64,000 nt of DNA from an uncultured bacterium (GTDB lineage: Bacteria > Margulisbacteria > Termititenacia > CAZZFK01), in NCBI GenBank assembly GCA_964653455.1, contig CAZZFK010000001.1:158179-222178 (forward strand). The letters are read 5' to 3'. Shown here one piece after another: positions 8,127 through 38,836 of this stretch. Numbering within the stretch: position 1 is the first letter of the stretch; each line of letters begins with the position of its first letter. A program made the translations under genes and the position numbers. The notes under the pieces are model-generated. The model did no database searches. It worked only from the letters and a program-made list of their open reading frames with translations, and was not told where the DNA came from.

Positions 8127-9713
8127 TCAAACGACCAGGTCCCGCTCCTTACACTCCGACGTCCGGTAGAAGACCAACTTCGGATAGAGCTCCCGCACAT
8201 GATGCAGCTCCCACTGACCTTCAAAGAAGTATACGAGCCGCTCATCAGTATCGAGCGCTATTTTCATCACACGTTCCCGCTTCACTTTTTCTATCTCCGC
8301 ACTGTCACCGCCGATCCAATAAGCGAACGCTCTGGGATACTCGGCATATTCACAATCTGCACCGTATTCGCTCTTGAGCCGGTATTGCACGACCTCGAAC
8401 TGCAGGACACCGACAGCACCAAGAAGGAGGGAATTATCAAAGATCATCTTAAAGAGCTGCACCGCTCCTTCTTCAGAGAGCTGTCGAAGCCCGGTCTGCA
8501 ATTGCTTGGTCTTATTGGTATTGCGATTGATGACACGACGGAACGTTTCAGGAGCAAAGCTGGGGATGCCCGTATAATGCAATGTTTCACCTTCCGTGAA
8601 GGTATCCCCGATCTTAATGAGACCAGTATCGTGTATCCCGATGATATCCCCGGGATAGGCCTCTTCGATGATCGTCCGAGTCTGCGCCATGAACGTGATC
8701 GGGTCCGCGATCTTCATCTCACGGTCCAGACGGATGTTCTTTACTTTCATGCCGCGAGTGAATTTTCCGGAATTGATGCGCATAAAGGCCACTCGATCCC
8801 TGTGACGCGGGTTCATGTTGGCATGGATCTTGAAAACGAGCCCGGTCAATGCAGGCTCCTGCGGCTCAACTGTCCGCTCTTCTGCGGGACTTGGCTGCGG
8901 CATCGGAGCCAGTTTGACGATATGTTCAAGCAGCTCATAGACGCCGAAATTATTGATGGCGCTCCCGAAGAACACCGGTGTCATTTTCCCGTCCAGGTAT
9001 TGTGCCAGGTCGAACTTCTCGAGCGCTCCCTCGATCATCTCCAGGTCCTGGAGCAGTTTATCTGTATAGAGCGGTTCGACATCAGGGATGGACCGGGGGT
9101 CGCCGACCGTTGCGGTCGTGAACGTTTTGGCCCCTGCCTTGAACGAAAGGAACGCCTTGTCCGCGATGTTATAGACACCTTTGAACGTCTTGCCCATACT
9201 GATCGGCCAACTCAGCGGGATCGCCTTGATGCTCAAGCTTTGTTCGATATCATCGAGCAGATCGAACGGGTCGCGCCCTTCCCGATCGAGCTTATTGATG
9301 AACGTTATGACCGGGATATTACGCAGCCGACAGACATCCATCAGCTTTTTTGTCCTGTCCTCGACGCCTTTCACGGAATCAATGACCATCAGGACCGAAT
9401 CGACGGCCGTGAGCGTGCGATAGGTATCTTCACTGAAATCCGCATGTCCCGGCGTGTCCAGAAGGTTTATGACCACGCCTTTATGCTCGAAACACATGAC
9501 CGAGGTGGCGATAGACACACCGCGTTCGCGCTCGATCTCCATCCAGTCGGACGTCGTATGCCGGTCCGTCTTGCGTGATTTTATCGCGCCGGCCTGCTGG
9601 ATAGCACCGCCAAAGAGCAAAAGCTTTTCCGTGATCGTCGTTTTTCCCGCATCCGGATGACTGATGATCGCAAAGGTCCTGCGTATCGATATTTCGTGCT
9701 GAAGCTCTGCCAT
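8127..9713 (-). CDS. prfC: peptide chain release factor 3
   Basis: N-terminal RRTFAIISHPDAGKTTITEKLLLFGGAIQ.AG and DTPGHADFSEDTYRTLTAVDSVLMVID are near-canonical RF3 GTPase sequences; 528 aa. Confidence 0.95.
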   Translation of the reverse strand: MAELQHEISIRRTFAIISHPDAGKTTITEKLLLFGGAIQQAGAIKSRKTDRHTTSDWMEIERERGVSIATSVMCFEHKGVVINLLDTPGHADFSEDTYRTLTAVDSVLMVIDSVKGVEDRTKKLMDVCRLRNIPVITFINKLDREGRDPFDLLDDIEQSLSIKAIPLSWPISMGKTFKGVYNIADKAFLSFKAGAKTFTTATVGDPRSIPDVEPLYTDKLLQDLEMIEGALEKFDLAQYLDGKMTPVFFGSAINNFGVYELLEHIVKLAPMPQPSPAEERTVEPQEPALTGLVFKIHANMNPRHRDRVAFMRINSGKFTRGMKVKNIRLDREMKIADPITFMAQTRTIIEEAYPGDIIGIHDTGLIKIGDTFTEGETLHYTGIPSFAPETFRRVINRNTNKTKQLQTGLRQLSEEGAVQLFKMIFDNSLLLGAVGVLQFEVVQYRLKSEYGADCEYAEYPRAFAYWIGGDSAEIEKVKRERVMKIALDTDERLVYFFEGQWELHHVRELYPKLVFYRTSECKERDLVV

Positions 9714-9860: not shown

Positions 9861-9888
9861 TGGTCATTATTATTTTTTTTGCTATAAT
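9861..9888 (+). promoter_or_regulatory. sigma-70-type promoter with extended -10 (TGcTATAAT)
   Basis: TATAAT at 9883-9888 preceded by TGC (extended -10); TGGTCA 16 nt upstream as a weak -35; sits in a very AT-rich intergenic region about 30 nt upstream of the micropeptide ATG. Confidence 0.45.
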
Positions 9889-9920
9889 GAATTCATCAAA
9901 TGACGAAAGGGGTGTCCAAC

Positions 9921-9989
9921 ATGGCAGTTAAAAAGAAAAAGAAAGTTGTGAAGAAAAAGAAGGCAGTAAAGAAAAAGAAGAAAAGATAG
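9921..9989 (+). CDS. 22-residue lysine-rich micropeptide (MAVKKKKKVVKKKKAVKKKKKR)
   Basis: ATG 9921 with AAAGGGG 8 nt upstream, TAG stop at 9987-9989; below the ORF track size cutoff; promoter directly upstream and inverted repeat directly downstream. Confidence 0.35.
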   Translation: MAVKKKKKVVKKKKAVKKKKKR

Positions 9990-10001
9990 TTTCATTGCAC
10001 C

Positions 10002-10038
10002 GCCCTGTTCCTCTCCGTTCATCGGTCCGGAACAGGGC
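10002..10038. other. perfect 10-bp inverted repeat (GCCCTGTTCC ... GGAACAGGGC) with 17-nt loop
   Basis: Read directly; 12 nt after the micropeptide stop; no T-run follows, so this is a terminator-like or regulatory stem-loop of uncertain role. Confidence 0.4.
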
Positions 10039-10177: not shown

Positions 10178-10325
10178 CGTGAAAGCACAGGACAAATATC
10201 ACATTTATCTGGGGATCGTGCTTGTGATCATTTCCGCACTGACCTGTATCCAGACGAACACCTGTATCGCACAGAACTCACATACCACCCTGACAGCCAT
10301 GAACTCTTCATCGGTCATTGAATGA
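10178..10325 (+). CDS. small hydrophobic protein (about 49 aa from a GTG start)
   Basis: AAAGGAGG 9 nt upstream of GTG 10178; one hydrophobic helix (IYLGIVLVIISALT); the track lists a longer 71-aa version from ATG 10110 that lacks a Shine-Dalgarno. Confidence 0.3.
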
Positions 10326-10387
10326 AAAACACGGACCAGAACGAACGCCATCATCGAATATGATCGTCCGCGGCCCATCTTCCGGAG

Positions 10388-13246
10388 CTACTTCCCTCGC
10401 CGTACCATTGCATGCAACGATTGATACCAGGCCTTCCCCGTCCGCGTTCTTTTCATCTCAAGGTCTTTCACGACATTTTCCATCCATGGCCCGTACGCGA
10501 ACACGACCCGCTTAAAGATGTTCAGTACCTTATGCGCTTTACGTATCGGCAATTGTTCAGCGATATATTGTTCGTACTTTTCACGCTGATGATACGGTTC
10601 CAGGAAGATATTCAGGTCATGCACACTGTCTTTTGCTCGCTCCAGTATCTTTTTGAGCGCTGTCCTGCTCCGCGGATTTTCCCAGAGAATATCAACGATA
10701 TCGAGCAATCCTGTCATCCTCCTCCGCCCTGTCGCTTCATCATCGCCCTGGAGTTGCGTCTCAGGAACGATCTCTTTGAGCGTCGCATAATTGAGCTCAT
10801 ATTCTTTGCGGGACTTGACCGAACCCTCGATATATCCGCCTACGAGCTCGGACGCGATCTTTCCCATGAGCACCACAGATAGAGCGACCCCTGCCCAACC
10901 AAAAAGATAGGAAAGACCGAACGCGATCGGCCCCGCGATAAAACTTCTCATAAGATTCCGTCGCTTTACGTCCTGTGTGAAACCTCTCAATGAATTATGC
11001 GCATAGATGTACCCCCCATTGAGGGCCGCGAGGGCCACATAGTTCAGGAACCGCTTCGCCATCTCAACAGCAGCATGCTGCTGCGTTCGCAAATGCTCCG
11101 CGATATGTCCATGATACGCGGAGACGTACGCGATCATCTGGTCCATGCTCTGCTCGAGCAGAGCACCGTCAGTCGTGAGCACCATGGACTGAAAATAATG
11201 GTCCGCGATACGGAGCACCGGTATAGAAAGAAAACTGAAGAACATGGAGACCGCGGCATTATGCGGATCAAAATCCTTCATACGCCAATTAACCGGGTTC
11301 CAGCCGTTCTTAGCGACCAGATCCACGACCATATTACGTCCGTACGTGATAAAGAACCAGAACGCATGCACAGCTTCACCGTACGAGAACGCTGCCTTTC
11401 CACAATAGACCGCATATGAGACCGCAGTGCCTAACGTCATCACGATCACGTCTTTGACATGCATATTGAGATCGAACACATAGTCCCGCATCCGGCCGAA
11501 CGGGCCTGTGCGCAGGACATCTGACCGCAGCTGCAATTTCGCCTTCTCGCTCTTGCCCAAAGAGAGCACTACACCATGATCAGAGGACGATCTCACGGAC
11601 ACATGCCCGAGCAGACCGGTCAGTGCATCACGAGGACCCATTCTGAGACCGATCATATCAACGGCGTTCACACGAAGAAGTCGTCTCCAGCGGCGGACCT
11701 TCCTGCGGTCGGTGTACCCCATCCCAGGGACCTTATGGTTATGCCCGTCCGAATTACTGCCGATACGGGCCCGCAAGGGGACCTTCCTGAAATGCTCGGA
11801 GGCTTTCGCCAATTGATAGCGTCGTATATCCAGTTTTTCCCGCTCGACCAACCGCACGGCTTTCGTGACCTGACCCTCGTTCAAACATTCTCTGATCTTG
11901 TTGAGTAAAAGCATCTGTCGTATCAGCTCTGGTCCGGCCACACGATTATTCCATACTTCGATCGATGAGATATGTTCATGATATGTGGTCATATAGTCCA
12001 CTGCCGCTTCCAGACCATGGATAATGGACCTATTGAGAACAACATGTGCCCGGATCTCCTGACCTTCCTGGGAGACCGCATTGATACGTTCAAGAGCAGT
12101 GAAGGCGGTCTCCGGCAACATGAACCGCATGCTGTCCATCATCTTGAAATAGATACCATCAAAATATTTCTTTCTAAGATACACCTTATCCATGCGTTCA
12201 GGGAGCTTTTTACCGTTAATGAGAAAGAGCGCGGTCAAATGAGCGTGCAGATACCGACCGAGATGGACCTGAAACAACGGTTTCCCCTGGGCATAGGTAT
12301 ATAAATCCTCGAGGTCCAAAGACGGTATCGTGATCTGTTCATAGACCAGGTCGCTGTTCAAGACGGGCAGGACCTCCGCATTGAACCGCTCAATGAGACG
12401 AACGAACAACTGATCACGGGTCTTATTGTTCTTGCGAAGCGCCTGAGCGAACTGCTGCCAGGCTTTATCAGCAAAAAGTGCGTCATAATCCCCTATCGTG
12501 CGACAATGCTCGAACACGACGGTCTGATGATAGTATCGCCCGCCATAACTGACGACATATTCCAGGCCGCAATGGACCGTGATATCCAGGATAGCACCGG
12601 CACATACCACTTCATGAATAGCATCCCTATCCTCGAACGCATCAAATACGATCGTGAGCCCGGACAAGCCTTTGATATACGCGTCCAGAACGAGCTGTGC
12701 AGGCCGTTTGCGATCGATAGAGACATGATCGTCCCATGCGATACGTCCGGTCTTTTCCGGTATCTCGGCCATACCCAGGAGGGCGAGCGCACGGCGTACG
12801 GCAGGAGCTTTACCCGAAAGGGCACGCATGTAACAGTCGACCAGCCGGCATTGCCGTAAGATGTTCCCTTTTGCCTTCACACATTCTTTCATAAGGGCCA
12901 TCAGTACCGGAGGCGTGTTCAGCGGCATTTCCTTGCTGTTATAATTGCGACCTTCCTCCATCAGCCTTTTGAGCGCACGCAACCGCAGGTCAGGATCATT
13001 GGAGCGGATAGCGACATAGAGCAGTGCCATATCAAGGGGCTTTTCATAGACCACCTCTTTGAACCCGCGCACATGCCCTTCGAAGAAGAAATGGATATCG
13101 GCGATATCACGATCCAGTAGTTCGTTCAGCGTACGAACGGTCGCATATATCTCCGGGGAGAACGTGGTCGCGCGGCGCACACGGCCGGAAAATGTCATAT
13201 CCCGGACATGCTCAATGACCGCAGCGGCTACTATCTTGGCGAACAT
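10388..13246 (-). CDS. large uncharacterised protein (952 aa) with predicted transmembrane segments
   Basis: Long ORF; hydrophobic stretches (FIAGPIAFGLSYLFGWAGVALSVVLMG, MFFSFLSIPVL) towards the N-terminal third; no family recognised. Confidence 0.6.
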   Translation of the reverse strand: MFAKIVAAAVIEHVRDMTFSGRVRRATTFSPEIYATVRTLNELLDRDIADIHFFFEGHVRGFKEVVYEKPLDMALLYVAIRSNDPDLRLRALKRLMEEGRNYNSKEMPLNTPPVLMALMKECVKAKGNILRQCRLVDCYMRALSGKAPAVRRALALLGMAEIPEKTGRIAWDDHVSIDRKRPAQLVLDAYIKGLSGLTIVFDAFEDRDAIHEVVCAGAILDITVHCGLEYVVSYGGRYYHQTVVFEHCRTIGDYDALFADKAWQQFAQALRKNNKTRDQLFVRLIERFNAEVLPVLNSDLVYEQITIPSLDLEDLYTYAQGKPLFQVHLGRYLHAHLTALFLINGKKLPERMDKVYLRKKYFDGIYFKMMDSMRFMLPETAFTALERINAVSQEGQEIRAHVVLNRSIIHGLEAAVDYMTTYHEHISSIEVWNNRVAGPELIRQMLLLNKIRECLNEGQVTKAVRLVEREKLDIRRYQLAKASEHFRKVPLRARIGSNSDGHNHKVPGMGYTDRRKVRRWRRLLRVNAVDMIGLRMGPRDALTGLLGHVSVRSSSDHGVVLSLGKSEKAKLQLRSDVLRTGPFGRMRDYVFDLNMHVKDVIVMTLGTAVSYAVYCGKAAFSYGEAVHAFWFFITYGRNMVVDLVAKNGWNPVNWRMKDFDPHNAAVSMFFSFLSIPVLRIADHYFQSMVLTTDGALLEQSMDQMIAYVSAYHGHIAEHLRTQQHAAVEMAKRFLNYVALAALNGGYIYAHNSLRGFTQDVKRRNLMRSFIAGPIAFGLSYLFGWAGVALSVVLMGKIASELVGGYIEGSVKSRKEYELNYATLKEIVPETQLQGDDEATGRRRMTGLLDIVDILWENPRSRTALKKILERAKDSVHDLNIFLEPYHQREKYEQYIAEQLPIRKAHKVLNIFKRVVFAYGPWMENVVKDLEMKRTRTGKAWYQSLHAMVRRGK

Positions 13247-13394
13247 CTCTGCTCCCTTATTATGGGCGATACATTACCTTCCGGCACACCTGTGCCGGTA
13301 CTATGTTAATATCGTACAGATATCGTTGGAAATTCAGCGGATCAATCCTATGCCGTGGCCGGACGTACGACCGCGCTTGCGCTACCTCGCCAGC

Positions 13395-15521
13395 TCAATG
13401 TACGGGACTGGGGTCAATAGTGCTGTCGGCAGGGTATGTGTTATGGACCCGATATGACGAATACCCCTTGGTCCCTCTCATTTTATTCGCTCGTCGTTCA
13501 TTTTCCAGGATACGGGTAGCTTCTTGAATATCATGTGCAGCATCCTTGAGTACCATCAAGGAATCCTTTTGTATCTGATAGAGCACGTGCCGGGACCTTT
13601 TAAAAAGGGAGGGATATACATGATGCTCGATCGCCCATCGGTTCAGCTGCCTCAGCCGCGCAAGTTCATACTGCTCCCATCGGGCAGGGAAACGGTCCTG
13701 TTCATCCTTCTCGAGCCGACCGCGGACATATCCATACAATTCTGCCGCAAGACGGTCATGCATGACATGTTCTTCCGTTATACCAAGGAGAGAAAAGAGG
13801 TCGTTACGCGCTATCAGTTCATTGAGATTATCCCACGCAGAAAGCCCTGTTCGGGCGGATAATGACGGATACGTCCGCAATAAGAACTCCAATACCTCCT
13901 TAGCGTCCTGATTGCTGATATCCTCAATCCCGTATTTACCCAGGTCCATATCCCACGTCAGGAAATGCGGCCCGAGCCTAAAGGTCCTTTCTTGTTCCTC
14001 GATCCATTTTTTCTGTAAAGCTTGTACGGCCGCATCGATATCTCCGTTACAGGCATCAAATATCCTGCCGTACGTATCCATCGTATTCCTGTCATCGTCG
14101 ATCGAGGCCAGATACCGCAACGCCTCCGTGCGTTCTTGAACATCATGTTGTGCCCCATCACGACCGTCATGCCGAACGGCGAACTTCTTATCCACCTCAG
14201 CCAGAAGATCATCAAGGCTCGCCAACGGGGCATATGTAGGTTCAGGCTTTTTTTCTGACGGACGGTGAACAGGACCATCTTTCGAACTTCCGTCTTTCCG
14301 GTCACCTGAACCCTCTTCCCGAATGACCGCTGCGACACGCATCTTTTTTTTCTGCTCTTCAAGGAGCCTATCCCCTATCTGTTTATGTCTGTCCGATGTT
14401 CTCTGCATGCCGTCCTTGAGCCACTGCCGCACCTCCGCACTGACCGCATCAAAGATACCGCTCGCGGCCATATCCGCGTCGTTCGGCAAGAGATATATCT
14501 GTGTCCCGTTCTGATACCGCAAGAGCTTCTGACCGTTCTCCTGTAACATATGCCGATAGAACAGGACCGAGCGCTCGGTAGTGCCTATATCTTTCGCGAA
14601 TTGGCGCACACACTGGTACATGGTGCGCACCTGACCGCCCATATAACGGCCGCGCAGATATTTATCGAAATCATCAGGATATAATCTGGAGATACTTTCC
14701 GCCCTCTTCAGGTCCTTCATGATCTGCTGCGATATCTTTGCGGGAGCGGACGCATCGAGGTCCAGGCCTTTTGTCGAGAACACTTCTTTTTCCGTATACC
14801 CGCTCTTGGGGTTCTTTTGCAGCCCGAGCTCCAGAACGGACACTAACTTGACCGCATCGCCCACGGATAACGCGAGAGGATCATCAGCCTCTTCCTGCGG
14901 CCACATTTCTTCCAAGCTCTTGGCCTCTTCGGAACGAACGCCCAGTTTTTTAAGCGCATTGGCCTTGCGCTCGTCCTCACAAAATATCAATCTCACGACA
15001 TTCTGCTCTGCAGGATAACGGCATATATCCGACATATGATGTACGAACAAGAACTCAAAATAATACCTGTAGACCCCTGTTACCCCATGGGACTTAAAGA
15101 ACCGTTCTTTATCGGCCGAGAACACATATTCCTCGAACAGTTCTTTCAGGTCCCAGCGAAAAACATCGTCCAGGCAGACCTTCCGTGTCTTTCCCCCGCG
15201 CACTATCACCACCTCATCAAGAGGTGCGTGAGTATGAAATACCGAAGCGAGCAAATCCTTTTCTTTGATGCCTACGGGATGGGGGGACGTTCTGATGTGT
15301 TTCATCAATTCTTCAAAGATCTGTGTGCGCTCTTTTTCTTCCTGTATCTCTTTGAGGTCCAGTTTCTTGACGCCCGCTTTTGTATCCGTAACAAGCGCTC
15401 CGCCGGAAGCCGACCAGTCCAGCAGTTCTTTGCCTTTATCGTCCGATATCATTTTTTTATGCCACATGGCCATACCCCTTCTTCCTATATAGATATCGTA
15501 TTTTTTGGAAAAAACTCCCAT
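13395..15521 (-). CDS. uncharacterised protein, paralog A (708 aa), UBA-like motif
   Basis: Shares with the next gene the N-terminus MG..(D)(I/T)YI.R...M..WH.K..SD, YRYYFEFLFVHH, a GL..D/E..AP.I helix and a Lys/Arg/Pro-rich linker; YGRIFDACNGDIDAAVQAL resembles the UBA / EF-Ts N-terminal fold. Confidence 0.65.
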   Translation of the reverse strand: MGVFSKKYDIYIGRRGMAMWHKKMISDDKGKELLDWSASGGALVTDTKAGVKKLDLKEIQEEKERTQIFEELMKHIRTSPHPVGIKEKDLLASVFHTHAPLDEVVIVRGGKTRKVCLDDVFRWDLKELFEEYVFSADKERFFKSHGVTGVYRYYFEFLFVHHMSDICRYPAEQNVVRLIFCEDERKANALKKLGVRSEEAKSLEEMWPQEEADDPLALSVGDAVKLVSVLELGLQKNPKSGYTEKEVFSTKGLDLDASAPAKISQQIMKDLKRAESISRLYPDDFDKYLRGRYMGGQVRTMYQCVRQFAKDIGTTERSVLFYRHMLQENGQKLLRYQNGTQIYLLPNDADMAASGIFDAVSAEVRQWLKDGMQRTSDRHKQIGDRLLEEQKKKMRVAAVIREEGSGDRKDGSSKDGPVHRPSEKKPEPTYAPLASLDDLLAEVDKKFAVRHDGRDGAQHDVQERTEALRYLASIDDDRNTMDTYGRIFDACNGDIDAAVQALQKKWIEEQERTFRLGPHFLTWDMDLGKYGIEDISNQDAKEVLEFLLRTYPSLSARTGLSAWDNLNELIARNDLFSLLGITEEHVMHDRLAAELYGYVRGRLEKDEQDRFPARWEQYELARLRQLNRWAIEHHVYPSLFKRSRHVLYQIQKDSLMVLKDAAHDIQEATRILENERRANKMRGTKGYSSYRVHNTYPADSTIDPSPVH

Positions 15522-15582
15522 TTTGAGGGGCTCTGGAGGGTGGTGCCCGGTGTGAAAAATACCGAATAATGCCGGACCTTCG

Positions 15583-17424
15583 TCAGCCGAACATATCCTT
15601 CAGTTCCTGGGCATGTTTCTCATTGATCTCAGCGGCTTTACGTAATAATTCTTTCTTGGCGACCTCGAAGTTGCCTCCGTTCTCTTCCAGGACACTTTTA
15701 CATTGGTCCTTGTCAAAACCGGCCATCATCACTTCACGCAACAGGGTCAACTCGCGAACTTCCTTTGAATAGGATCGGAGCAGCTCGGAACGCCAGAGGA
15801 TATCTTCCTCTTTTTCGTTCAACGGGCGGCCAAGCAACAATATCTTTCTCGCTCGGCCGATACTATTGCCTGAACGTTCATACGCAGAGGAGCACTCATC
15901 CCAGGTCTTTTTCGTTTCATAACAAAGGCTGAAGATATCGTCCTTTATTTGCTGCTCAGCAGTGATCGCCGCACGTTTCAGCGCATCGTGCTTCCTATCC
16001 ACCTCTTCACAGATCTGTTCAAAACTCTTCCGGGGAGGGAATTCCACCGGCACATACTGTTTCCTTTGAGGGACTTCCGCTTTAGGCGACGAGACCTTTT
16101 TTGGCGGGATCACAGGGACAGGCCGTGTCTCAGATTCTCGCTTTCCCCGCATTTCCGTCTCGCGTTGTTTTTGCTTTGCTTCTTCAAGAGCGGCCATTTT
16201 ACGCCCCGCCGCCAATATCTCCTCATGTTCTTCATCGTTCTTCAGCTTCAACCAATCGATGACATCCATGATGCGCCGTTGGTTCACATCGTTCTTGTCT
16301 TTCCGCTGACGATGGAGCTCATCTTTCAGCCCGGACAACGCAGTGGGATTGTTCAGGACGATGTACATTTCGCCCCTGTCCTCATATATGAAGAATTTTA
16401 CGCCGTTATTCAAAAGGAGATACTTGACCGCCTCAATGGCTTTGACCGTGCATCCGAGCTCTTTGGCCAACCTCGATTCTTCTCCGCCATAGTCCTGGTC
16501 CAAAAGTTTTTTAAGGTCCTCAAAACGCTGATATTCATACTTGATCTTTTTGCGCTCATGAATGAGTTTACGTATCTGCGGTGCCGTCTCCCTGTTCAAC
16601 CCAAGAGCATTGAGGAGCGTACGCTCCGTATACCCTAACGGGTCCCTTCTGTTGCCTTTGTTCAATAACCCCAGAAGTTCTTCTTCTTTCTCATGAAATA
16701 TCTGGATCGTATCGATATTCTCGTATTCGAACGTATCATAACCGACCCACAGGGATTCCAGTTGCTGTGCGGCAATGGAATTCTTGCCCAATTTTGCTAC
16801 GGCAGCCTCTACCCTGTCCTGCAGGGAAGGAAGAATGAAGATCTCCCCGTTATGAGCATATCTGATGATCTTGAGCGGATGATTGGCGAACAGATAACTG
16901 AAGTAGTACTTATACTGCTCTTTGATGTTCGAATCGGAAAGGAATCGTCCGATATTGTTCACATATCTGCGGGAAAGCTGGACCATATCTTCGACCGAGA
17001 TATCCATTAAGGGTTTTACCTTGAAATCATTTGGCCCTGCGATCACATTATAGGGGACCTGCGGCACCTTGATAGTGAACGCTGCCGGATATCCGAGGAC
17101 CTCCAGCAAGCGTTTTTCCCGCACACCGAACACGTCCTTTTCCGTGCTTAATTCATGTACGATCTTCTTTCTCAGGTCCTCGAGGGCCCTCTCATCTTTC
17201 AATTCAGCGGGCGTTTTTTTAACTTCCTGTTTAACGTCAAAAGTATCATCCGCAGCGAACAACTGCAGGTCCATACGCAGCTCAATACGCTCGCCATTCT
17301 CTCCGACCGCATATACGGGCGTTCTCAGCCACGCAAGACAATCGGATAATAATTTATTATGCCACACGGACATACCTGTGCACCTCTGTATATAGGTATC
17401 GGAACCTCCTGAAGGTCGTCCCAT
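15583..17424 (-). CDS. uncharacterised protein, paralog B (613 aa), C-terminal UBA-like domain
   Basis: Paralogous to 13395..15521 (YKYYFSYLFANHP, LGCTVKAIEAVKYLLLNNG); C-terminal VMMAGFDKDQCKSVLEENGGNFEVAKKELL fits the UBA consensus (MGF ... NG.(V/F)E.A...LL). Confidence 0.65.
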   Translation of the reverse strand: MGRPSGGSDTYIQRCTGMSVWHNKLLSDCLAWLRTPVYAVGENGERIELRMDLQLFAADDTFDVKQEVKKTPAELKDERALEDLRKKIVHELSTEKDVFGVREKRLLEVLGYPAAFTIKVPQVPYNVIAGPNDFKVKPLMDISVEDMVQLSRRYVNNIGRFLSDSNIKEQYKYYFSYLFANHPLKIIRYAHNGEIFILPSLQDRVEAAVAKLGKNSIAAQQLESLWVGYDTFEYENIDTIQIFHEKEEELLGLLNKGNRRDPLGYTERTLLNALGLNRETAPQIRKLIHERKKIKYEYQRFEDLKKLLDQDYGGEESRLAKELGCTVKAIEAVKYLLLNNGVKFFIYEDRGEMYIVLNNPTALSGLKDELHRQRKDKNDVNQRRIMDVIDWLKLKNDEEHEEILAAGRKMAALEEAKQKQRETEMRGKRESETRPVPVIPPKKVSSPKAEVPQRKQYVPVEFPPRKSFEQICEEVDRKHDALKRAAITAEQQIKDDIFSLCYETKKTWDECSSAYERSGNSIGRARKILLLGRPLNEKEEDILWRSELLRSYSKEVRELTLLREVMMAGFDKDQCKSVLEENGGNFEVAKKELLRKAAEINEKHAQELKDMFG

Positions 17425-17461
17425 TTATTTGAGCTTTTTTAATATGCGGAAAAATGAAAAG

Positions 17462-17498
17462 AATAAAACCCCGGCGATACCTGTATCACTACAGGTAT
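17462..17498 (-). terminator. intrinsic terminator downstream of the PGK-family gene
   Basis: 9-bp perfect stem ATACCTGTA / TACAGGTAT with 4-nt loop; on the minus-strand transcript it is followed by a U-rich tract (plus-strand AATAAAA). Confidence 0.5.
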
Positions 17499-17524
17499 GC
17501 CAGGGCCTATCTTAGCAGTAGCAG

Positions 17525-19126
17525 TTATTGCTTTTTTGGCTGCGTAACATCATATCCAAAATTATACATTTCTGACATCGTATACTGCAGGACCTTGATC
17601 GACGGTAACGCCAACCCGTCAATAACATAGGCCATCGCCGCACCACCGCCGGTGAGCAATATACTGTACTCTGTACTATGATCCAGCAATCTTGATTTCT
17701 TTATCGCCGAATCCGTATCACCGCCGCCTAAGATACCATACCCATGGGTGACCTCGGCAAAAGCTTTGATGATGGCATCGGTACCATGTGCGAACTGAGG
17801 ATTTTCGAACACACCCATAGGACCGTTAAAGAACCTGTACTCGGCAGCTTTGATCCTCTCCGCATATAATTCCTCGGACTCACGACCAATATCAAGATAG
17901 ATCTGGTCATCCGCGATCTCTTTGACATTATGAACATCTTTAATATGCTTCCCGCCGCCGAACACGTTCGGAAGCTCTGTCCAACTGACCGTGCGAAAAT
18001 CCTTGGGGATAATGATGTTCACGCCGTTCTGTTCCGCGGTCTCAAGGAGCTCTATTGCCGCACGGATGCCTGCCGGATCGAGCTTCTGCTTATCCCAGAC
18101 CGCCTGGGGGATACCTTGTGCAAGAGCCTCTTCAAGAGTAAGCCCTGGCACACCCACCTTCATGCCGCGTGCTTTCATGAAATATAACGCCATTTTTCCG
18201 CCGACACAGATATCCTTGATACCTTTATCGACAAAACTGCGCAAAATATCGATCTTTCCCATTTCTGCTCCGCCCGGATCACCCATGATCTTGGTCCCGC
18301 CTGAGACCACGACCGACCTTTCCGGATATTTCAGGAACGCATCATGGAGTACATGCAGTTTCGCACTGCTGTTCACAAAAGAATCCGAGGCCATGACCGG
18401 TTTGTGAAGCTTTTTCATGGCTGACACCAGAAAGTTATTCGACCATTGAACGCGATGGATGAAATCGAACCCGGCGTTCATATATACGTCCAGATAATCC
18501 AGCATCTTCGGGAAAAGGTTCTGGTTCTTTTTTTCCATCATCCGTTCTTTTTCATTGATGCGTATGTTCTGGAGCAGCAGTATTCTGATCTTCCCTTGCT
18601 TCACTTTCCTTAGCTTCCAGAGCGCTTCTATACCGGCAAATTTTTTGGATTTTACCCTGTCTATCTTGATAACACCTTTGCCGAATTCACGCTCCACTCT
18701 GTGCTTCATTTTCTCAAAGATCATTTTATTATCTTTGAAAGTAACACCCATGATATTGTTCTTGTCTTCAACGTGATAGATAAGCACTACGTTCATACCG
18801 GCCTCAACAGCCGTTCTGACATCAGTCCATGAAATATCCATGCGCTTTTCGCTATCCACTTCATAACCTTTTGCAAAGAATCTGAGGGATTGCTTCGCAA
18901 GCTTGAAAGTAAGGTTCCAGTCGACCCTGATGCCGATCGTTTTACCCTTCACCCATTCTCTGTTCATCAGAATAAAGTTCTTAAAGGTTCGGATACCGTT
19001 CTTGTTCAAATGATTCGGCTTGAGCCGGTCTACGCTCCTCATTAAGTTATGCGTTGTATAAATATTTGGCCTTTGCGGTACAACTAATTCCTGGACGAAT
19101 TCTATTACTTTCTTTGAATGATACAT
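17525..19126 (-). CDS. pgk: phosphoglycerate kinase-family protein with N-terminal extension
   Basis: C-terminal RFFNGPMGVFENPQFAHGT, ILGGGDT and LTGGGAAMAYVIDG are diagnostic PGK motifs; N-domain aligns (IRILLLQNIRINEKE, IHRVQWS) but SHLGRP is replaced by YHVEDK; AAAGGAG precedes the ATG at 19126. Confidence 0.7.
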   Translation of the reverse strand: MYHSKKVIEFVQELVVPQRPNIYTTHNLMRSVDRLKPNHLNKNGIRTFKNFILMNREWVKGKTIGIRVDWNLTFKLAKQSLRFFAKGYEVDSEKRMDISWTDVRTAVEAGMNVVLIYHVEDKNNIMGVTFKDNKMIFEKMKHRVEREFGKGVIKIDRVKSKKFAGIEALWKLRKVKQGKIRILLLQNIRINEKERMMEKKNQNLFPKMLDYLDVYMNAGFDFIHRVQWSNNFLVSAMKKLHKPVMASDSFVNSSAKLHVLHDAFLKYPERSVVVSGGTKIMGDPGGAEMGKIDILRSFVDKGIKDICVGGKMALYFMKARGMKVGVPGLTLEEALAQGIPQAVWDKQKLDPAGIRAAIELLETAEQNGVNIIIPKDFRTVSWTELPNVFGGGKHIKDVHNVKEIADDQIYLDIGRESEELYAERIKAAEYRFFNGPMGVFENPQFAHGTDAIIKAFAEVTHGYGILGGGDTDSAIKKSRLLDHSTEYSILLTGGGAAMAYVIDGLALPSIKVLQYTMSEMYNFGYDVTQPKKQ

Positions 19127-20244: not shown

Positions 20245-23200
20245 ATGTACAGACCTGCGAACCATAAGATCATAGCGGCGATCGAAGAGCCTGTCGTACG
20301 AGCTGGACGGCAAAGGACCGTCCTTGTCATAGATGATGAACCCGACATGTGCTCATTTTTAAGTAACGCGCTCATGGAATTCGGCTTTGCGGTCTTGACC
20401 GCACAAGACAGCGGACACGGACTTGAACTGTTCAAACAACACCGCCCGGACCTGATACTGCTCGACCTGAACTTCCCTCAGTATATGCCCTGCGGGGAGA
20501 ACATACTTAAGGAGGTCGTTTCTTTTGATCCCATCACTCCCGTTCTGATATTCACAGGAGCCCCGGTGACGCCGGAAATGGCCTCCGAGCTGACACTGAC
20601 CGGGGCCAAGGGATTCCTGACCAAACCGTTCAAGGACCTCAATGGACTGAGAATGATCATCAATGAACGCATCAAGGAAGCGGACAATATCCGGTTCATC
20701 AAACATACCGAAACAGTCGGATATCAGCGGATCTACCATGAACTGGTACGGAGCCAAAAAGAGTTCGAAGCGCTCGTCATGAACACCTCGACCTCCATAT
20801 TCGAATATGCGAACGGACATTTTGTTTTTTTAAATCCTTCGTTCGAAAAAGAGATCGGCTACCCTCTGAAGGACCTGCAAGAGCTGGACCTGCATACCTT
20901 CGTCCACCCCGACTCACACGCGGCCATTGATGAACATGTGAAGCATTGTTTTGACCATCCGTACCAGGAACATCGTACAGAGCTGAAGCTGATGACCAGC
21001 AGCGGCACCATCCGCTGGGTCAAAGTGGTCTCGATCGTGGTCGACCTGGACGATACGCCGACGCTCATCGGTTCTGCGAGCGATATCACTGTACGAAAAG
21101 AGGAGCTTCGCCGCATATCGATACTCGAATCGCTCTTTCGGGAGCATTTGAGGTCCATCCCGGTCGCAGAGATGCCTGAACTGATCGCCCGCACGCTCCT
21201 GGAGCTTTCATCTGCCTCCACGGTGGCCGTGAACATATTCGACCCGGACACCAAAGAGATGACAATTGCCAATATTTCCGGTAATGAGGACCTGCTCGAA
21301 CAGGTCTGGCAGGAATACCAGGTCCCGTTCGTGAAACGCGGACATCAATTCAAGATAGATGATCTCTCGATACAGGCTTTGCGCTCTGATACCCTGATCA
21401 CTATACCACAGGGGCTCTATACACTCTGGGGGAAGGCCGAACCAAAAACAACCTGCCTTGAAGTAGAAGAACGCTGCGGCATCAGGTCCGTCCTCACACA
21501 AGGACTGGTCAATGAAGGTAGGCTCATCGGCAATATCGTTATCATGGCCAGACAGGACCGGGATAACCCTCCGATGAACAAACCTCAGATCAGCATCATG
21601 ATCAGGCTTTTCGCGCTCATGTGGCAGGAACGGATAAAAACAGAACAGCTTTCGCTGAACGAACAGCGCTATCACGCGTTCTTTGATAATATCAGTGATG
21701 CAGCATTGACCCTTAACGCTGCCGGCAAGATAACAGATTGCAACGCTCAGACCGAGACACTGTTCAAATATCCCGCAGAGATGATCCTAAAGGACAGGCG
21801 TACATTATTGAACATCGCCGTACCAGTCACCCCTTCGGACCGGCAAGCGCTCAAGGATATGCGCAAGACCGCACACATGCGCGGTTCGGCGAACGGAGAA
21901 ATAAGGTACAAGAACGGTGACGGGGACATCATCGATACGTTCATCAAGATAAAGACCGACAGCCTCGGGAACCAGTACGTCCTGATCACGGACATCACCG
22001 AACAGAAACGCGCGGAATATCTCCGCGGACATGACGAAGCCACCGGACTCCCGAACTCTCAGAGCTTCCTGAAGGAGCTCGAACGCGCCTATCATGACCA
22101 TACCGTCTCCGGCAAGAACTTCGCGGTCCTGTCCCTGGTCGCCGACTGGGGGGAAATGGATGCGCTCAAATTACGGTATCAGGGACAGAACATCTCAGAG
22201 AAAACGCTCCTTCATCTTTCTCAGGAATTGACCAGGGTCCTCCCCAGCAACACTGTCCTTGCTCGTGGAAAAAAAGAGAACGAGTTCCTGTGCCTCTACC
22301 ATGGCCTACAGGACCCGAAGAACGACAAGCGATTCGAAGAGATATTGAACAAGCTTTCAATACCGATCACGCTCTATCGTTTGCCCCGGACCGAACACAT
22401 CACGTTCAGTATCGGCATCACGACATCGTTCGATCCCGTGCATGATCGTCCCGAGAACATACTCACCAACATGGATACGGCGCGGAAAAAACTGAAAGAT
22501 ATCAAGATCCCGGGCGAAACACATATCTCCTGGTATGACCCAACGCTCGACGAGCAGAACCGCTCTATCCAGGAAATACGCACGTACACCAAAGAGATCG
22601 CACAGAACGGGTTCAAGGATTGTTACCTTAAATACCAGCCTATCTGGGACCACCGGACAAAGACCATTCATGCTGTCGAAGTGCTCTTCCGCTGTGACGA
22701 TCCCAAGTTCAGCAAGAATATCGAGCTCCTGATAAAAATAGCAGAGGAGAACAAGGAGCGCATAACAGCTCTTGATGCCTGGGTCCTCGAACGGGCATGT
22801 ACCGAGGCGCGGGACTGGGGGAACACCAAGATATGTGTCAATGTATCACCTCTCGAACTTGATGAATATTTCCTTGACCGGGTCATCGCTATCACGGACC
22901 GTTGCCGATTCCCCAGACAACGGCTCATTTTTGAGGTCACAGAACGCAGCTTCGTTAATGCTCAAAGCATTGATATCCTTCGCGCACTGGTACGGAACGG
23001 TATCGAGCTATCCGTCGATGATTTCCTTTCAGGTAATGCCACGTTCCACAACGTGAGCTTGTATTCGGACTGTATCCATTACGTGAAACTCGATAAAGGG
23101 GTCGTGAACGACCTTGAGAATGCACATACATTGCCTGACCGGGGCAAAAGCATGCTCGGCATAACCGAAGGTATGATAGAAACGTTCCATACAAAAGTTG

Positions 23201-23361
23201 GACGGCTCATCAGGGTCATAGGGGAAGGGATCGATTCGGCGAACATCGTACAACTCCTGAAGAACATCGATGTGGACCTTATGCAGGGGTACTTTCTTGG
23301 CCGTCCGGAAAATGCTAAGACCTTCGCCAAACGTTTCAACAGGAAAAAACATGCGAAATAA
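20245..23361 (+). CDS. response-regulator receiver / PAS / degenerate GGDEF / EAL protein (probable c-di-GMP phosphodiesterase)
   Basis: N-terminal REC domain (VLVIDDEPDM ... PDLILLDLNFP); EAL motifs EVLFR, DDFLSGNATF, VKLDKG, GEGID...QGYFLGRPE; the GGDEF position reads KKENEF (degenerate). Confidence 0.8.
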   Translation: MYRPANHKIIAAIEEPVVRAGRQRTVLVIDDEPDMCSFLSNALMEFGFAVLTAQDSGHGLELFKQHRPDLILLDLNFPQYMPCGENILKEVVSFDPITPVLIFTGAPVTPEMASELTLTGAKGFLTKPFKDLNGLRMIINERIKEADNIRFIKHTETVGYQRIYHELVRSQKEFEALVMNTSTSIFEYANGHFVFLNPSFEKEIGYPLKDLQELDLHTFVHPDSHAAIDEHVKHCFDHPYQEHRTELKLMTSSGTIRWVKVVSIVVDLDDTPTLIGSASDITVRKEELRRISILESLFREHLRSIPVAEMPELIARTLLELSSASTVAVNIFDPDTKEMTIANISGNEDLLEQVWQEYQVPFVKRGHQFKIDDLSIQALRSDTLITIPQGLYTLWGKAEPKTTCLEVEERCGIRSVLTQGLVNEGRLIGNIVIMARQDRDNPPMNKPQISIMIRLFALMWQERIKTEQLSLNEQRYHAFFDNISDAALTLNAAGKITDCNAQTETLFKYPAEMILKDRRTLLNIAVPVTPSDRQALKDMRKTAHMRGSANGEIRYKNGDGDIIDTFIKIKTDSLGNQYVLITDITEQKRAEYLRGHDEATGLPNSQSFLKELERAYHDHTVSGKNFAVLSLVADWGEMDALKLRYQGQNISEKTLLHLSQELTRVLPSNTVLARGKKENEFLCLYHGLQDPKNDKRFEEILNKLSIPITLYRLPRTEHITFSIGITTSFDPVHDRPENILTNMDTARKKLKDIKIPGETHISWYDPTLDEQNRSIQEIRTYTKEIAQNGFKDCYLKYQPIWDHRTKTIHAVEVLFRCDDPKFSKNIELLIKIAEENKERITALDAWVLERACTEARDWGNTKICVNVSPLELDEYFLDRVIAITDRCRFPRQRLIFEVTERSFVNAQSIDILRALVRNGIELSVDDFLSGNATFHNVSLYSDCIHYVKLDKGVVNDLENAHTLPDRGKSMLGITEGMIETFHTKVGRLIRVIGEGIDSANIVQLLKNIDVDLMQGYFLGRPENAKTFAKRFNRKKHAK

Positions 23362-26300
23362 CAGGAACAGGCTCTTTCATTCCAAGATCATCGCAGATAT
23401 ACATCGCGAACTCTTTATGACCAAAGGGAAGTTGAACCTTTTGCGCCATCAGAACGAACGGCAGCGGAAGATCATCTCTGGCCACCAGATCTCGGAACAA
23501 AAGCTCAAAGAACAGGTGGTATCCCTGCGAGCACAGATCGAAACCCTGAGAACAGAGAATATTGTGCTTTCCAAGACCCATACAGAGCTCAAAGAATGCC
23601 AGCTGACCATGCACGAAATGACCCAGAACCTGCGGGACATGATCACGTTCACCGACCTCACGGGCCGTATCACGTACAATTCTCCGGTCATTCGCGAGTT
23701 CCTCGGGTACGATCCGGAATATCTCAACGGCCTTTCGATTTTCGACCTCATACACCCTGACGATCGCCAGCACTCGCTCCGGGAGTTCAATGAAGCGATC
23801 GCACAACGTCAACCCCGGACGGCCATCATACGTTTCAGACACAAGGACGGACACTACCTGTGGCTTGAATCGAGCGGCAATTATATCCCTGACGACGCCG
23901 GCGGTATCAGCAAGCTCATCTTCTCGAGCCGGGACATCAGTGAAAGGCTCTCGCTTTATGAAATGATCGGCAAACAACAGCAGCTCCTTCAGATGATCAC
24001 GGAGAACATGCGGGACATGCTCTCCGTTGTCACCCCGGACCTTCGGTTCACCTATGTGAGCGCCTCGAATTTCAAGGTGCTCGGCTATGCTCCGAAGGAC
24101 CTGACCGGGATCTCACTGCTCTCTATCCTTCACCCCGACGACGCGCATAACGTGGCACAGCTCTTCTCCCTGCTCCGCCAGACCGGCATGGAAGAGACCG
24201 CCACAGAGGTCCGTTGCAGAAGATCGGACGGCAGTTATCTCTGGGTGGAGACCGTGATCAACGTGGTATTCAGCACACCGGGGACCATAGAACATATCAT
24301 CCTCTCGAGCAGAGAATGTACAGAACGTAAACGGATCGAGGCCGAACTTGAACTGGAACGCTACTACAGCCGTGAGATCATAGATAAGAACATCATCCCG
24401 TTCTTCGAGATCGACCTGGACGGCTATATGCACGATGCCAATCAGGCAATGGCGGACATGCTGGGTCGTCCGCTGCATGAGCTCAAACCGCGCCCGATCC
24501 CACTTGAGGCCATACAAAAGGCCATCGGACGTTCCGGTATCCGCTGGGAGGACCTTGTCTCCATGGACAAGAACAATACGTTCATTTTCAAGAAGAACAG
24601 CCTCTCCTCGATCTGCAACACTGCCCCTGATTCAGCTGAACGAAAAGCATTGCTCTCTCTCATCAGATCTTCTTTTGGACCGAAATATTCCGATCTTGTC
24701 GGACCAAAACATGCACGAACATCCTGGAACGCGTTCAAAGAGGTCTTTGAAACCAAACGGTCCCGTTCGACATATGACCTGCCCATTACCGGCAAAGATG
24801 AACGGATCGGGGAGACCTCTATAAATCTTCGCTATGAGAACGAGCGGATCATCGGCTACTTCGGCTTCATCCGGGACGTCACCGAGATACGTAAGACCGA
24901 GCAGGAAAAACAGATGGTGGCACATATCATCTCCAATACCGTGGACAGGACGGATACGATCGTATACCAGCTCGACAGAGACGGATATATGACATACACG
25001 AACAACGCCATCCATAAAAGAAGAGCGAAAGAGCTCGAAATGCTCAAGACCGATCACAAACGACTGCATTATCTGGAGTTCGTTGTCCCTGAATACCGTG
25101 CGTTCGTCAGGGACCATTATGAAAAACTACTGGCCGAGCACGCTCTCCTGCTAAAAAACAACCCGCACGTTCGGGCCGCCGACATCCCCCCTCTGTCGCC
25201 GTTCCTGGAGTTCCCTGTCCAGATCGGAGAGAGCACCCTCTGGATCTCACAAGCTATCACTGTCGAGCTCGATGAAACCACACGGGAGATCACGCGCGTG
25301 AACGCAATAGCACATAATATCACTGACCGAAAACTCGCGGAGCTCGAAAGAGAAAAAGCAGACAAACAAAAAGAACGGGCGGAACAAGAGCTCCGCAACA
25401 GCCATGAACAGATGAAAAAAGTGCTTGATCAGCTCCATGAAGCAGCGATCATTCAGGGAAGCGACGGGATCACGCTCATCAACGAAGCGTTCGCGAACAT
25501 GGTCGGACTGACAAAAAAAGATATTCTCGGCTCCCATCCTGTCGAATACGTACCAGAAGATTTCATTCCGGCCTTTTTGGACCAATACATACCCGGCACG
25601 TCCCCGATCCCTGAAGAAATGACACTGCTCAGTACCACTAAAGGCACCATCCCGGTCAAGCCCAGCCACTCACTGCTGACCGAAGGCCAACAGACCGATG
25701 AACCATTACATCTATGGACGTTCCTTGATCTGACCGAACGTAAAGAAAGGATCAACAGTGCTCTCCGTGATGAACTGACCGGTCTTCCGCAAAGAGGATT
25801 GTTCAAGGAATATTTCATGAACGCCGTCGCAGAAGCAAAACGGGCCAAGAACGCAGGGCTCCCGTATTTCATTTCCATGTTCTTCATCGACATCAATAAG
25901 TTCAAAGAATATAACGATAAGCTCGGATACTATGAAGGCGGAGATCCGGCCATTAAGACCGCCGGAAGGATAGCCAGCCAGTGCATGCGGGAGACCGACC
26001 ACTTCGCACGCTGGGGTGGGGATGAGTTCATCGGACTGCTGGAGAATATCGACGGAGGAACGGAGAACGTGCTTCAAAAGATCATGGCCAGTGCGCTCGT
26101 GAAGGACCTCCGGTTCAGCATCGGAGTGTATCATGATGACCTGACCGCTCTTGACCTTTCAGACCAGAACAAGCTTTTTGATGAATGTATCAGAAAGATA
26201 ACCATAGCGGAAGAAAAAGCAAAACAACTGAGCGCCCTTCACCCTGTCTCCGTGACGATCAACGACAAGACCCTGAATCTGACAGATAATTATTGTTATT

Positions 26301-26422
26301 ATTACGGGAGCGACACCGAGGGCAAGCCGCCGCTGCATAAACGGCCGTTCCTCAAGTTCAGACAGATGTCCGTTCTGAACAAACAATACCTCAAAGCTGT
26401 CTGGAAGATCCTGCGCGGCTGA
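23351..26422 (+). CDS. multi-PAS sensor diguanylate cyclase (GGDEF)
   Basis: C-terminal RDELTGLPQRGLF ... RWGGDEFIGLL is an intact GGDEF domain; several PAS-like repeats and a coiled-coil N-terminus; start placed at ATG 23351 (AGGAAAA upstream), overlapping the previous stop by 11 nt. Confidence 0.8.
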   Translation: MRNNRNRLFHSKIIADIHRELFMTKGKLNLLRHQNERQRKIISGHQISEQKLKEQVVSLRAQIETLRTENIVLSKTHTELKECQLTMHEMTQNLRDMITFTDLTGRITYNSPVIREFLGYDPEYLNGLSIFDLIHPDDRQHSLREFNEAIAQRQPRTAIIRFRHKDGHYLWLESSGNYIPDDAGGISKLIFSSRDISERLSLYEMIGKQQQLLQMITENMRDMLSVVTPDLRFTYVSASNFKVLGYAPKDLTGISLLSILHPDDAHNVAQLFSLLRQTGMEETATEVRCRRSDGSYLWVETVINVVFSTPGTIEHIILSSRECTERKRIEAELELERYYSREIIDKNIIPFFEIDLDGYMHDANQAMADMLGRPLHELKPRPIPLEAIQKAIGRSGIRWEDLVSMDKNNTFIFKKNSLSSICNTAPDSAERKALLSLIRSSFGPKYSDLVGPKHARTSWNAFKEVFETKRSRSTYDLPITGKDERIGETSINLRYENERIIGYFGFIRDVTEIRKTEQEKQMVAHIISNTVDRTDTIVYQLDRDGYMTYTNNAIHKRRAKELEMLKTDHKRLHYLEFVVPEYRAFVRDHYEKLLAEHALLLKNNPHVRAADIPPLSPFLEFPVQIGESTLWISQAITVELDETTREITRVNAIAHNITDRKLAELEREKADKQKERAEQELRNSHEQMKKVLDQLHEAAIIQGSDGITLINEAFANMVGLTKKDILGSHPVEYVPEDFIPAFLDQYIPGTSPIPEEMTLLSTTKGTIPVKPSHSLLTEGQQTDEPLHLWTFLDLTERKERINSALRDELTGLPQRGLFKEYFMNAVAEAKRAKNAGLPYFISMFFIDINKFKEYNDKLGYYEGGDPAIKTAGRIASQCMRETDHFARWGGDEFIGLLENIDGGTENVLQKIMASALVKDLRFSIGVYHDDLTALDLSDQNKLFDECIRKITIAEEKAKQLSALHPVSVTINDKTLNLTDNYCYYYGSDTEGKPPLHKRPFLKFRQMSVLNKQYLKAVWKILRG

Positions 26423-37949: not shown

Positions 37950-38083
37950 AGGAAAAGTATAGCATCGTAGTAAAGGGGCTGTCCTTGCCTGTACCCCCCT
38001 GAGCTGAATACTGTTTTCTGGGCTAGCATGCGCAAAACAGGTGCCAGACACCAACCAAGCCAAGCCCCACTTCTCTATATCAC

Positions 38084-38545
38084 TCAGTGAATACCCAAAA
38101 CATCACGTAATTTCTCCAATACCTCCCGAGAAACCGAGCTTTGGTCACATGCGAACAAGGACCACAAAAAGAATTTTGCCACATGAAAACCCATAAATAG
38201 ACAGAACAAGGTCATCAGATCAAGATGCATAATATTGAACTGCATCACAACAAGATGACCGAAAATAGCGATCAATAAGAATACATACGCGATCCTATCA
38301 AGATATATCCAGGGGCAATCATTTTGAGGATAGAGGTTCCCGCTCGTCACAGCTGCGTTCCAGAACGCGACAAACACAGCCATAAGGAAAGCCGTGATCG
38401 TTAAAAAACCGATCATACCCAGATAACCACCGTCATTTGGTATTGAATCACTGGACCACCATATCGAAGACCAGAACAGCCAATATGCGGTAGTTGCAAA
38501 TATTTTCCAGAACATATATACACCTCTTTCTTTAGTTTTTCCCAA
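38084..38545 (-). CDS. hypothetical integral membrane protein
   Basis: 153 aa with about four hydrophobic helices, Trp-rich N-terminus; no motif recognised. Confidence 0.5.
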   Translation of the reverse strand: MGKTKERGVYMFWKIFATTAYWLFWSSIWWSSDSIPNDGGYLGMIGFLTITAFLMAVFVAFWNAAVTSGNLYPQNDCPWIYLDRIAYVFLLIAIFGHLVVMQFNIMHLDLMTLFCLFMGFHVAKFFLWSLFACDQSSVSREVLEKLRDVLGIH

Positions 38546-38668
38546 ATACTATAGATACGCCTTTTGCCAAACAGAACACAAAAAGGCCTTGCATAATTGA
38601 TTCATGCATTCCGGGATTTTCCCCCATAAGGACCACCTGTTTCATAGCATTTTCAAGTTTATTCATAT

Positions 38669-38836
38669 TCATTTTCTTCTCCTTTTCTTAATACCCTTTT
38701 TGCTCTGTTCCTCGCGTTCCTGCAACAAACAAAGCAAAAATACAACATACAACACGCCAAACAATGCATACCCATACAGCCGGGAATAGAACACCGTGAC
38801 AAGAAAAACGACCACCCCCGGAATGGCTGCATACAT
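38669..38836 (-). CDS. small hydrophobic protein (55 aa, C-terminal KKRRRK)
   Basis: AGGAGGTG 6 nt upstream of ATG 38836 (MYAAIPGVVVFLVTVFYSRLYGYALFGVLYVVFLLCLLQ...); a second 46-codon ORF starts in an ATGA overlap with its stop; different frame from the Cys-rich 94-aa track ORF. Confidence 0.3.
   Translation of the reverse strand: MYAAIPGVVVFLVTVFYSRLYGYALFGVLYVVFLLCLLQEREEQSKKGIKKRRRK

Follow-up and report, generated by a model that had tools for sequence, protein, structure and literature searches.

Within a stretch of 64,000 nucleotides (hereafter the window) from an uncultured bacterium of the Margulisbacteria (Termititenacia; GenBank assembly GCA_964653455.1, contig CAZZFK010000001.1, forward-strand positions 158,179 to 222,178), we analysed a block of three consecutive minus-strand genes, which encode proteins of 952, 708 and 613 residues (aa) and which an initial annotation, made from the sequence alone, had put forward as a candidate uncharacterised functional module. 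The block lies between prfC and a gene of the PGK family (Table 1), and its three open reading frames (ORFs) are present as that annotation had drawn them, with gaps of 148 and 61 bp when measured from the first ATGs.

For the two shorter proteins, the first ATGs are probably not the true starts. No Shine-Dalgarno (SD)-like sequence is found ahead of them, and because such sequences occur upstream of internal ATGs in both genes, and the database versions of the pair (690/692 and 596 aa) begin at these same internal ATGs, translation probably starts 16 to 18 codons further downstream, at M17 or M19 in the 708-aa ORF and at M18 in the 613-aa ORF. With these starts, the gaps would become about 151, 109 and 148 bp.

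At its upstream boundary, the block is set off by a hairpin of about 18 pairs that follows the stop codon of the PGK-like gene, is matched in stability by none of 200 shuffled sequences and is followed by UUUUAUUCUUUU. A simple consensus terminator scan overlooked it; the terminator that had been proposed to separate the block from the PGK-like gene is nonetheless real. Within the block, the terminator scan found no terminator-like site in either of the internal gaps, and the 148-nt gap is no more stably folded than its shuffles. With the block cut off from the PGK-like gene by the upstream hairpin, the three genes may be co-transcribed.

Table 1. Features of the three-gene block and its immediate surroundings, in window coordinates.
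Feature	Position	Strand	Remarks
prfC, downstream of the block	8127-9713		
952-aa protein gene	10388-13246	minus	ORF call; SD AAGGGAG 6 nt upstream of ATG; belongs, as a divergent member, to a membrane PHP-domain family without annotation
C-terminal long-helix tail, ~residues 831-952	10391-10756	minus	from the structure model
Predicted six-helix membrane domain, ~residues 590-830	10757-11479	minus	from model helices, hydropathy and conservation over 73 sequences
PHP-fold (beta/alpha)7 barrel, ~residues 165-515	11702-12754	minus	enlarged helical insertion of TrpH/RNase AM type; metal site degenerate in this copy
N-terminal all-helical domain, ~residues 20-160	12767-13189	minus	pLDDT 80-93; family-invariant H58, R88, N110, T111, K120, Q132, G145
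708-aa orphan paralogue gene	13395-15521	minus	probable start M17 (15473) or M19 (15467); soluble, hydrophilic, mostly helical
Start-region element, 708-aa gene	15442-15476	minus	copy of a 35-nt direct repeat (D2, 80% identity) across the likely start codon
613-aa orphan paralogue gene	15583-17424	minus	probable start M18 (17373); soluble; sub-threshold UBA/TS-N-like motif, residues 567-589
Start-region element, 613-aa gene	17342-17376	minus	second copy of the 35-nt direct repeat
Intrinsic-terminator-like hairpin and U-run after the PGK-like gene	17450-17508	minus	-32.9 kcal/mol, z = -4.75; upstream boundary of the block
PGK-family gene, upstream of the block	17525-19126	minus	Pfam PGK 1.3e-55

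The orphan pair

The 708- and 613-aa proteins are tandem paralogues, as the initial annotation had recognised: they align over about 500 columns with 26% identity (E = 3e-24), and there is no third copy within the window. Both are hydrophilic (grand average of hydropathy about -0.66) and lack a convincing membrane segment. Searches of Pfam, NCBIfam, PADLOC and PHROGs assigned no family to any of the three proteins of the block and gave nothing above threshold, with no match at all in PADLOC and matches only at E >= 0.012 in PHROGs. In a word-indexed search of 5.8 billion protein clusters, each member of the pair retrieves only itself, and an exhaustive HMMER search of 1.84 billion representatives with a profile built from the two sequences retrieves only these two. 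A profile search of the PDB returned nothing for the pair, nor were there matches to it in viral contigs or metagenome contigs. The pair thus described is one of species-specific duplicated orphan genes.

Between the paralogues, third codon positions are randomised and synonymous sites saturated, which marks the duplication as old, with both copies held open by selection. The exception is the start of the genes, where the first 30 codons retain 68% nucleotide identity, and 60% at third positions, compared to about 40% and 30% elsewhere. This shared region, with its two copies of a direct repeat, suggests a conserved leader, ribosome-binding site or regulatory element that was copied together with the gene.

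That the two ORFs are not real protein-coding genes is extremely improbable. Such a reading could invoke the lack of homologues anywhere and the poor structure prediction, as an AlphaFold2 (AF2) model of the 613-aa protein reaches a predicted local distance difference test (pLDDT) score of 41. However, a low pLDDT is what is expected from an alignment of only two sequences, and the frames remain open over 613 and 708 codons at about 50% GC, a composition at which chance cannot produce ORFs longer than 600 codons. Paralogy is moreover evident at the protein level while third positions are randomised, the GC content at the three codon positions (GC1, GC2 and GC3) of both genes follows the pattern of the other genes in the window, and SD-like sequences precede the likely starts.

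The AF2 model, itself based on the two-sequence alignment, is usable only for its secondary structure, which is mostly helical and includes a helix-helix-hairpin unit at residues 318-357; it was not submitted to a fold search, as matches would be meaningless at this pLDDT. When both orphans were cut into domain-sized segments and scanned against Pfam at E <= 10, the only signal was a sub-threshold UBA match at residues 567-589 of the 613-aa protein (...SVLEENGGNFEVAKKELLRKA), which scores 15.6 bits in the whole protein and 21.1 bits in the C-terminal segment alone, against a gathering threshold of 22.4. A similar motif, 'ACNGDIDAAVQALQKK', can be seen by eye in the 708-aa sequence. UBA (Pfam PF00627) and EF-Ts N-terminal (TS-N) domains consist of three helices. 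The match in the 613-aa protein extends over just 22 residues, and the low-confidence model does not confirm it structurally. The orphan proteins may, though this is a weak indication, be binding or adaptor proteins and not enzymes, and the pair could represent a truly new fold family limited to one lineage. It gives no present handle for functional work, and it shows the extent of lineage-specific coding sequence that survives in poorly sampled spirochaete-like lineages.

Relatives and genomic context of the 952-aa gene

The word-indexed search retrieved 13 relatives of the 952-aa protein, one of them labelled Rectinemataceae and the nearest 36% identical, and a pattern scan of species-representative genomes yielded 103. 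About 25 of the latter are labelled as Spirochaetota (Rectinemataceae, Treponemataceae, Leptospira), about 14 as Riflebacteria/Ozemobacteraceae and about 17 as Myxococcota, Bradymonadales or Desulfobacterota, the remainder being unclassified metagenome-assembled genomes (MAGs). This makes for a family of membrane proteins of about 900 residues in more than 100 species and at least three or four phyla that is blank in curated databases. One Myxococcales MAG (CAMCLY01) holds two copies on different contigs (loci L053 and L063), so paralogy also occurs within this family.

We collected 82 loci with a homologue of the 952-aa gene, with up to 10 kb of flanking sequence on each side (shorter at contig ends). 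By tblastn, neither the 708/613 pair nor the PGK-like protein has a relative in any of the 82. Clustering of the neighbouring ORFs uncovered only clade-specific synteny, mostly on the opposite strand, and among neighbours on the same strand and no more than 150 bp away no cluster exceeds two members and none is recurrent. In Riflebacteria, a PGM-family gene, TPR proteins, a pilin-like protein and a V-type ATPase operon recur in the vicinity, none in the same direction as the 952-aa homologue, and in two annotated contexts the gene stands alone between oppositely oriented genes. A 709-aa ORF directly upstream of one homologue (locus L011) was considered as a remote relative of the 708-aa protein and rejected; it is an ABC exporter, with an hhalign probability of 0.1%.

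With no conserved linkage, no recurrent same-strand neighbour and a pair that is absent from all collections searched, the proposal of a functional module finds no support. The initial annotation had named, as the outcome that would speak against it, clear assignment of all three proteins to unrelated known families together with a lack of conserved linkage. Linkage is indeed lacking, and assignment succeeded for one protein of the three only. Its description of the proteins as large and uncharacterised stands, although the 952-aa protein does not wholly escape assignment, as its central 350 residues form a PHP-fold domain (see below).

The block is, in our view, probably a juxtaposition of two unrelated evolutionary units and not a conserved module. 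The first would have arisen by the old tandem duplication of a lineage-specific orphan gene, whose products are predicted to be cytoplasmic proteins, soluble and hydrophilic, for the most part helical and with a Lys/Glu-rich linker, each gene having retained its own conserved start region. The second would be a gene that normally stands alone and encodes an inner-membrane protein, from a family that spans several phyla and lacks annotation; in this protein, a cytoplasmic helical domain is followed by a cytoplasmic PHP barrel (TrpH/RNase AM type), by six membrane helices and, at the end, by a helical tail.

It is unlikely that the three genes form instead a lineage-specific operon, transcribed from one promoter downstream of the PGK-like terminator, with the orphans as cytoplasmic partners or regulators of a membrane PHP-like protein. 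The genes are co-directional and closely spaced (61-148 bp, or 109-151 bp with the revised starts), the upstream terminator is strong, and neither a terminator-like site nor unusual folding of the 148-nt gap interrupts the block. Yet the linkage is conserved in none of the 82 loci and the 952-aa family is typically stand-alone; each orphan has its own conserved start region and the 952-aa gene its own SD, and gaps of more than 100 bp leave space for separate promoters.

Slightly less likely still is that the orphan pair and the divergent PGK-like gene constitute a laterally acquired island, or the remnant of a mobile element, beside a resident 952-aa gene. GC content drops from about 0.52 to 0.43-0.47 across 14.8-19.6 kb, GC3 is 0.55-0.57 as compared to 0.59-0.72 in most other genes, the orphans are without homologues anywhere searched, and the PGK-like gene is very divergent. 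However, we found no integrase, tRNA or flanking repeat and no PHROGs or viral-contig matches; the change in GC is gradual and mild beside that of the distinct low-GC blocks found at 38-42 and 52-54 kb, and the saturation of synonymous sites between the paralogues speaks for an old duplication and for genes long resident in this genome.

The PGK-like gene encodes an oversized (533 aa) and very divergent PGK paralogue, which scores 189 bits against Pfam PGK and 95 bits against the best solved PGK. Only its nucleotide-binding half (NGPMGVFE, GGGDT) is well conserved and, with a GC content of 0.458, the gene is the lowest of the neighbourhood; it is unlikely to be the housekeeping PGK. The two low-GC blocks, at 38000-42300 and 52000-54000 (0.39-0.41 as compared to about 0.52), are likely acquired segments and carry genes for a TPR protein (39012-40766), a WYL/WCX-domain protein (40810-42237) and a family-2 glycosyltransferase (52103-53977).

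Fold, metal site and membrane domain of the 952-aa protein

The structure model of the 952-aa protein, built from a 14-sequence alignment, reaches a pLDDT of 77 and a predicted template modelling (TM) score of 0.74. Its N-terminal helical domain has no informative structural match. The central ~350 residues form a PHP-fold domain that is a remote relative of the RNase AM phosphoesterases: they adopt the distorted (beta/alpha)7 barrel that characterises the PHP superfamily and carry, within the barrel, the helical insertion with an R-x-H-[FL] motif that is characteristic of TrpH, RNase AM and Cv1693. In line with this, Foldseek matches the model to 2yb1, 3e0f and 3o0f with probability 1.00 and target TM-scores of 0.56-0.63, and the best match of the family in sequence-profile searches is BAD_1165 (3e0f; E = 1.3e-3 over profile positions 161-270). 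The Pfam PHP family (PF02811, gathering threshold 26.4 bits) matches neither the protein nor its 14 aligned relatives, and among ten canonical members of the family one scores 14.4 bits, below this threshold.

In RNase AM, a trinuclear centre is built from nine ligands (H13, H15, D20, H45, E72, H83, H198, D255 and H257), where H13, E72 and D255 coordinate Mn-alpha, E72, H83 and H198 Mn-beta, and D20, H45 and H257 Mn-gamma, and where Arg201 contacts the scissile phosphate or a sulfate (PMC9410882). We aligned E. coli RNase AM to a 73-sequence alignment of the family with hhalign and tabulated each ligand position per sequence. In about 55 of the 73 members, the motifs are GWDDHVHD..SEGRKTP / G(I/L)E / RRH / IHP / GSDS; these members retain the equivalents of H13, H15, E72, H83, H198-P199 and D255, carry Glu at the D20 position and have lost H45 and H257. 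In most members of the family, the binuclear alpha/beta site is intact and the gamma site lost.

The 952-aa protein and its 13 Rectinemataceae-type relatives have a degenerate metal site. The motifs of the 952-aa copy read WDDHVSIDRKRP, VLNRS and GSNSDG, and in this copy, as in its subclade, three of the nine RNase AM ligands are retained: H13 (as H174), E72 (E229) and H83 (H240). H15 is replaced by Ser or deleted, D20 by Ile and H45 by Asp, while R406, N498 and D500 take the places of H198, D255 and H257. The position aligned to Arg201 (residue 409) is Glu, Ser or Asp across the family and conserved nowhere. As only three of the nine ligands are kept, the 952-aa copy is probably not a canonical hydrolase. 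Many other residues of the PHP region are invariant in the family (D172, R179, K180, D188, K192, E212, E430, S497, G501 and PGMG 507-510), as is a set in the membrane domain (see below), and for this reason all copies must be under selection for some function.

A low-confidence linker connects the alpha/beta domain (170-500) to helices that start at about residue 595. The initial annotation had noticed transmembrane segments in this protein, and we locate hydrophobic segments at residues 597-615, 664-682, 765-783 and 785-803, together with two amphipathic helices, so that four of the six model helices between 595 and 830 are hydrophobic on the Kyte-Doolittle scale. No solved structure matches this domain, in which a set of polar residues is invariant (R637, N638, D642, N663, H750, N751, R754, N764, R767, K796, E807 and K811). 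From the eight Lys/Arg residues that precede the first membrane helix and the five in the loop 754-767, a positive-inside pattern read from the sequence, we infer a topology with six membrane helices and both termini inside, which would place the PHP domain in the cytoplasm.

Members of the family with an intact alpha/beta site would probably be binuclear metal phosphoesterases at the cytoplasmic face of the membrane. The 952-aa copy, in which the membrane domain is kept, would most likely bind a phosphorylated ligand without hydrolysing it, or have an altered chemistry. More tentatively, the family may represent undescribed integral-membrane PHP enzymes in which a binuclear (alpha/beta-site) phosphoesterase is fused to a six-helix domain in which the invariant residues (Arg, Asn, Asp, His, Lys and Glu) provide a path for the substrate or a site of coupling; the substrate, which might be a nucleotide, a breakdown product of a second messenger or a lipid-linked phosphate, would be processed at the membrane, and the subclade of the 952-aa protein would be a pseudoenzyme offshoot turned sensor or scaffold. 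We consider this possible but doubtful. In the literature searched, we came upon no membrane-anchored PHP or TrpH protein. The members with an intact site and the degenerate subclade offer a ready comparison for the role of a membrane-attached PHP barrel, and the main value of the locus lies in this family of membrane PHP proteins without annotation, some branches of which look active and others degenerate, and not in the proposed module.

Just beyond the block, at 20245-26422 on the plus strand, lie two adjacent genes for large cyclic di-GMP (c-di-GMP) signalling proteins, one REC-PAS-GGDEF-EAL (1038 aa) and one multi-PAS-GGDEF (1050 aa). RNase AM-type enzymes can cleave pGpG (PMC11528712); we found no evidence of a link between these genes and the 952-aa protein.

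Several points weigh against the juxtaposition of two unrelated units as we describe it. 1) The organism is phylogenetically isolated. As its lineage is poorly sampled, and even the 952-aa protein has no homologue closer than 36% identity, the orphan status of the pair may in part reflect sparse sampling and fast divergence, with proteins that have drifted past recognition. 2) The three genes lie on one strand, their gaps are short and hold no terminator that can be recognised, and they may still be functionally linked and co-transcribed in this lineage. 3) The mapping of the metal ligands depends on sequence and profile alignments and on an AF2 model, and a four-residue deletion after beta-1 makes the D20 equivalent of the 952-aa copy ambiguous; D178 could substitute for D20, and D500 could replace D255. 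4) The membrane helices are only moderately hydrophobic (Kyte-Doolittle 1.3-1.6).

Two small ORFs lie on the prfC side of the block. One of 57 codons (10205-10378, minus strand) begins 9 nt past the stop codon of the 952-aa gene and is called as a gene in Logan assemblies, with no family match. The other, of 22 codons (9921-9989, plus strand; with flanks, 9861-10038), runs on the strand opposite to the block and encodes MAVKKKKKVVKKKKAVKKKKKR. An extended -10 promoter-like site (TGGTCA-16-TATAAT, with TG) and an SD (GAAAGGGG) lie ahead of this ORF and a 10-bp hairpin, GCCCTGTTCC...GGAACAGGGC, follows it; it has the look of a genuine small gene, whose peptide would be extremely basic. There are no Rfam or tRNA matches in the window.

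Comparison with known PHP proteins

RNase AM (also YciV or TrpH; E. coli b1266, PDB 7ug9; Vibrio cholerae, PDB 9etk) is a soluble protein of about 290 residues with nine ligands for three Mn ions and Arg201 (PMC9410882). In comparison, the 952-aa protein has an additional N-terminal helical domain, an insertion about two-fold larger, six membrane helices and a helical tail; it keeps three of the nine ligands, and its similarity lies under the detection limit of Pfam. The same differences set it apart from Cv1693 (PDB 2yb1) and BAD_1165 (PDB 3e0f/3o0f), PHP-family 3',5'-nucleotide bisphosphate phosphoesterases that resemble its barrel in fold and whose pAp-type activity cannot be carried over to the 952-aa copy because of its degenerate metal site.

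It is accordingly improbable, more so than an operon or an acquired island, that RNase AM or Cv1693 has in the 952-aa protein a membrane-tethered orthologue with full activity, acting as a 5'-3' exoribonuclease or a pAp/pGpG phosphoesterase. The shared barrel and insertion would fit such a role, but most of the ligands are replaced in this copy and the equivalent of Arg201 is not conserved; even the canonical members of the family lack the equivalents of H45 and H257, their architecture (about 900 residues with six membrane helices) is a different one, and the Pfam PHP threshold is not reached. The central domain is homologous to the TrpH/RNase AM/Cv1693 barrel and would work in a similar way, yet the protein lies outside that family as currently defined, because it departs from it in its metal ligands, in Arg201, in the soluble single-domain architecture and in its score against the curated threshold.

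The PHP domains of DNA polymerase III alpha and PolC are a more distant comparison, as they lack the TrpH-type insertion domain, are part of a polymerase and are not membrane-associated. In E. coli, the polymerase III alpha subunit provides a precedent for a degenerate PHP domain that serves as a binding platform.

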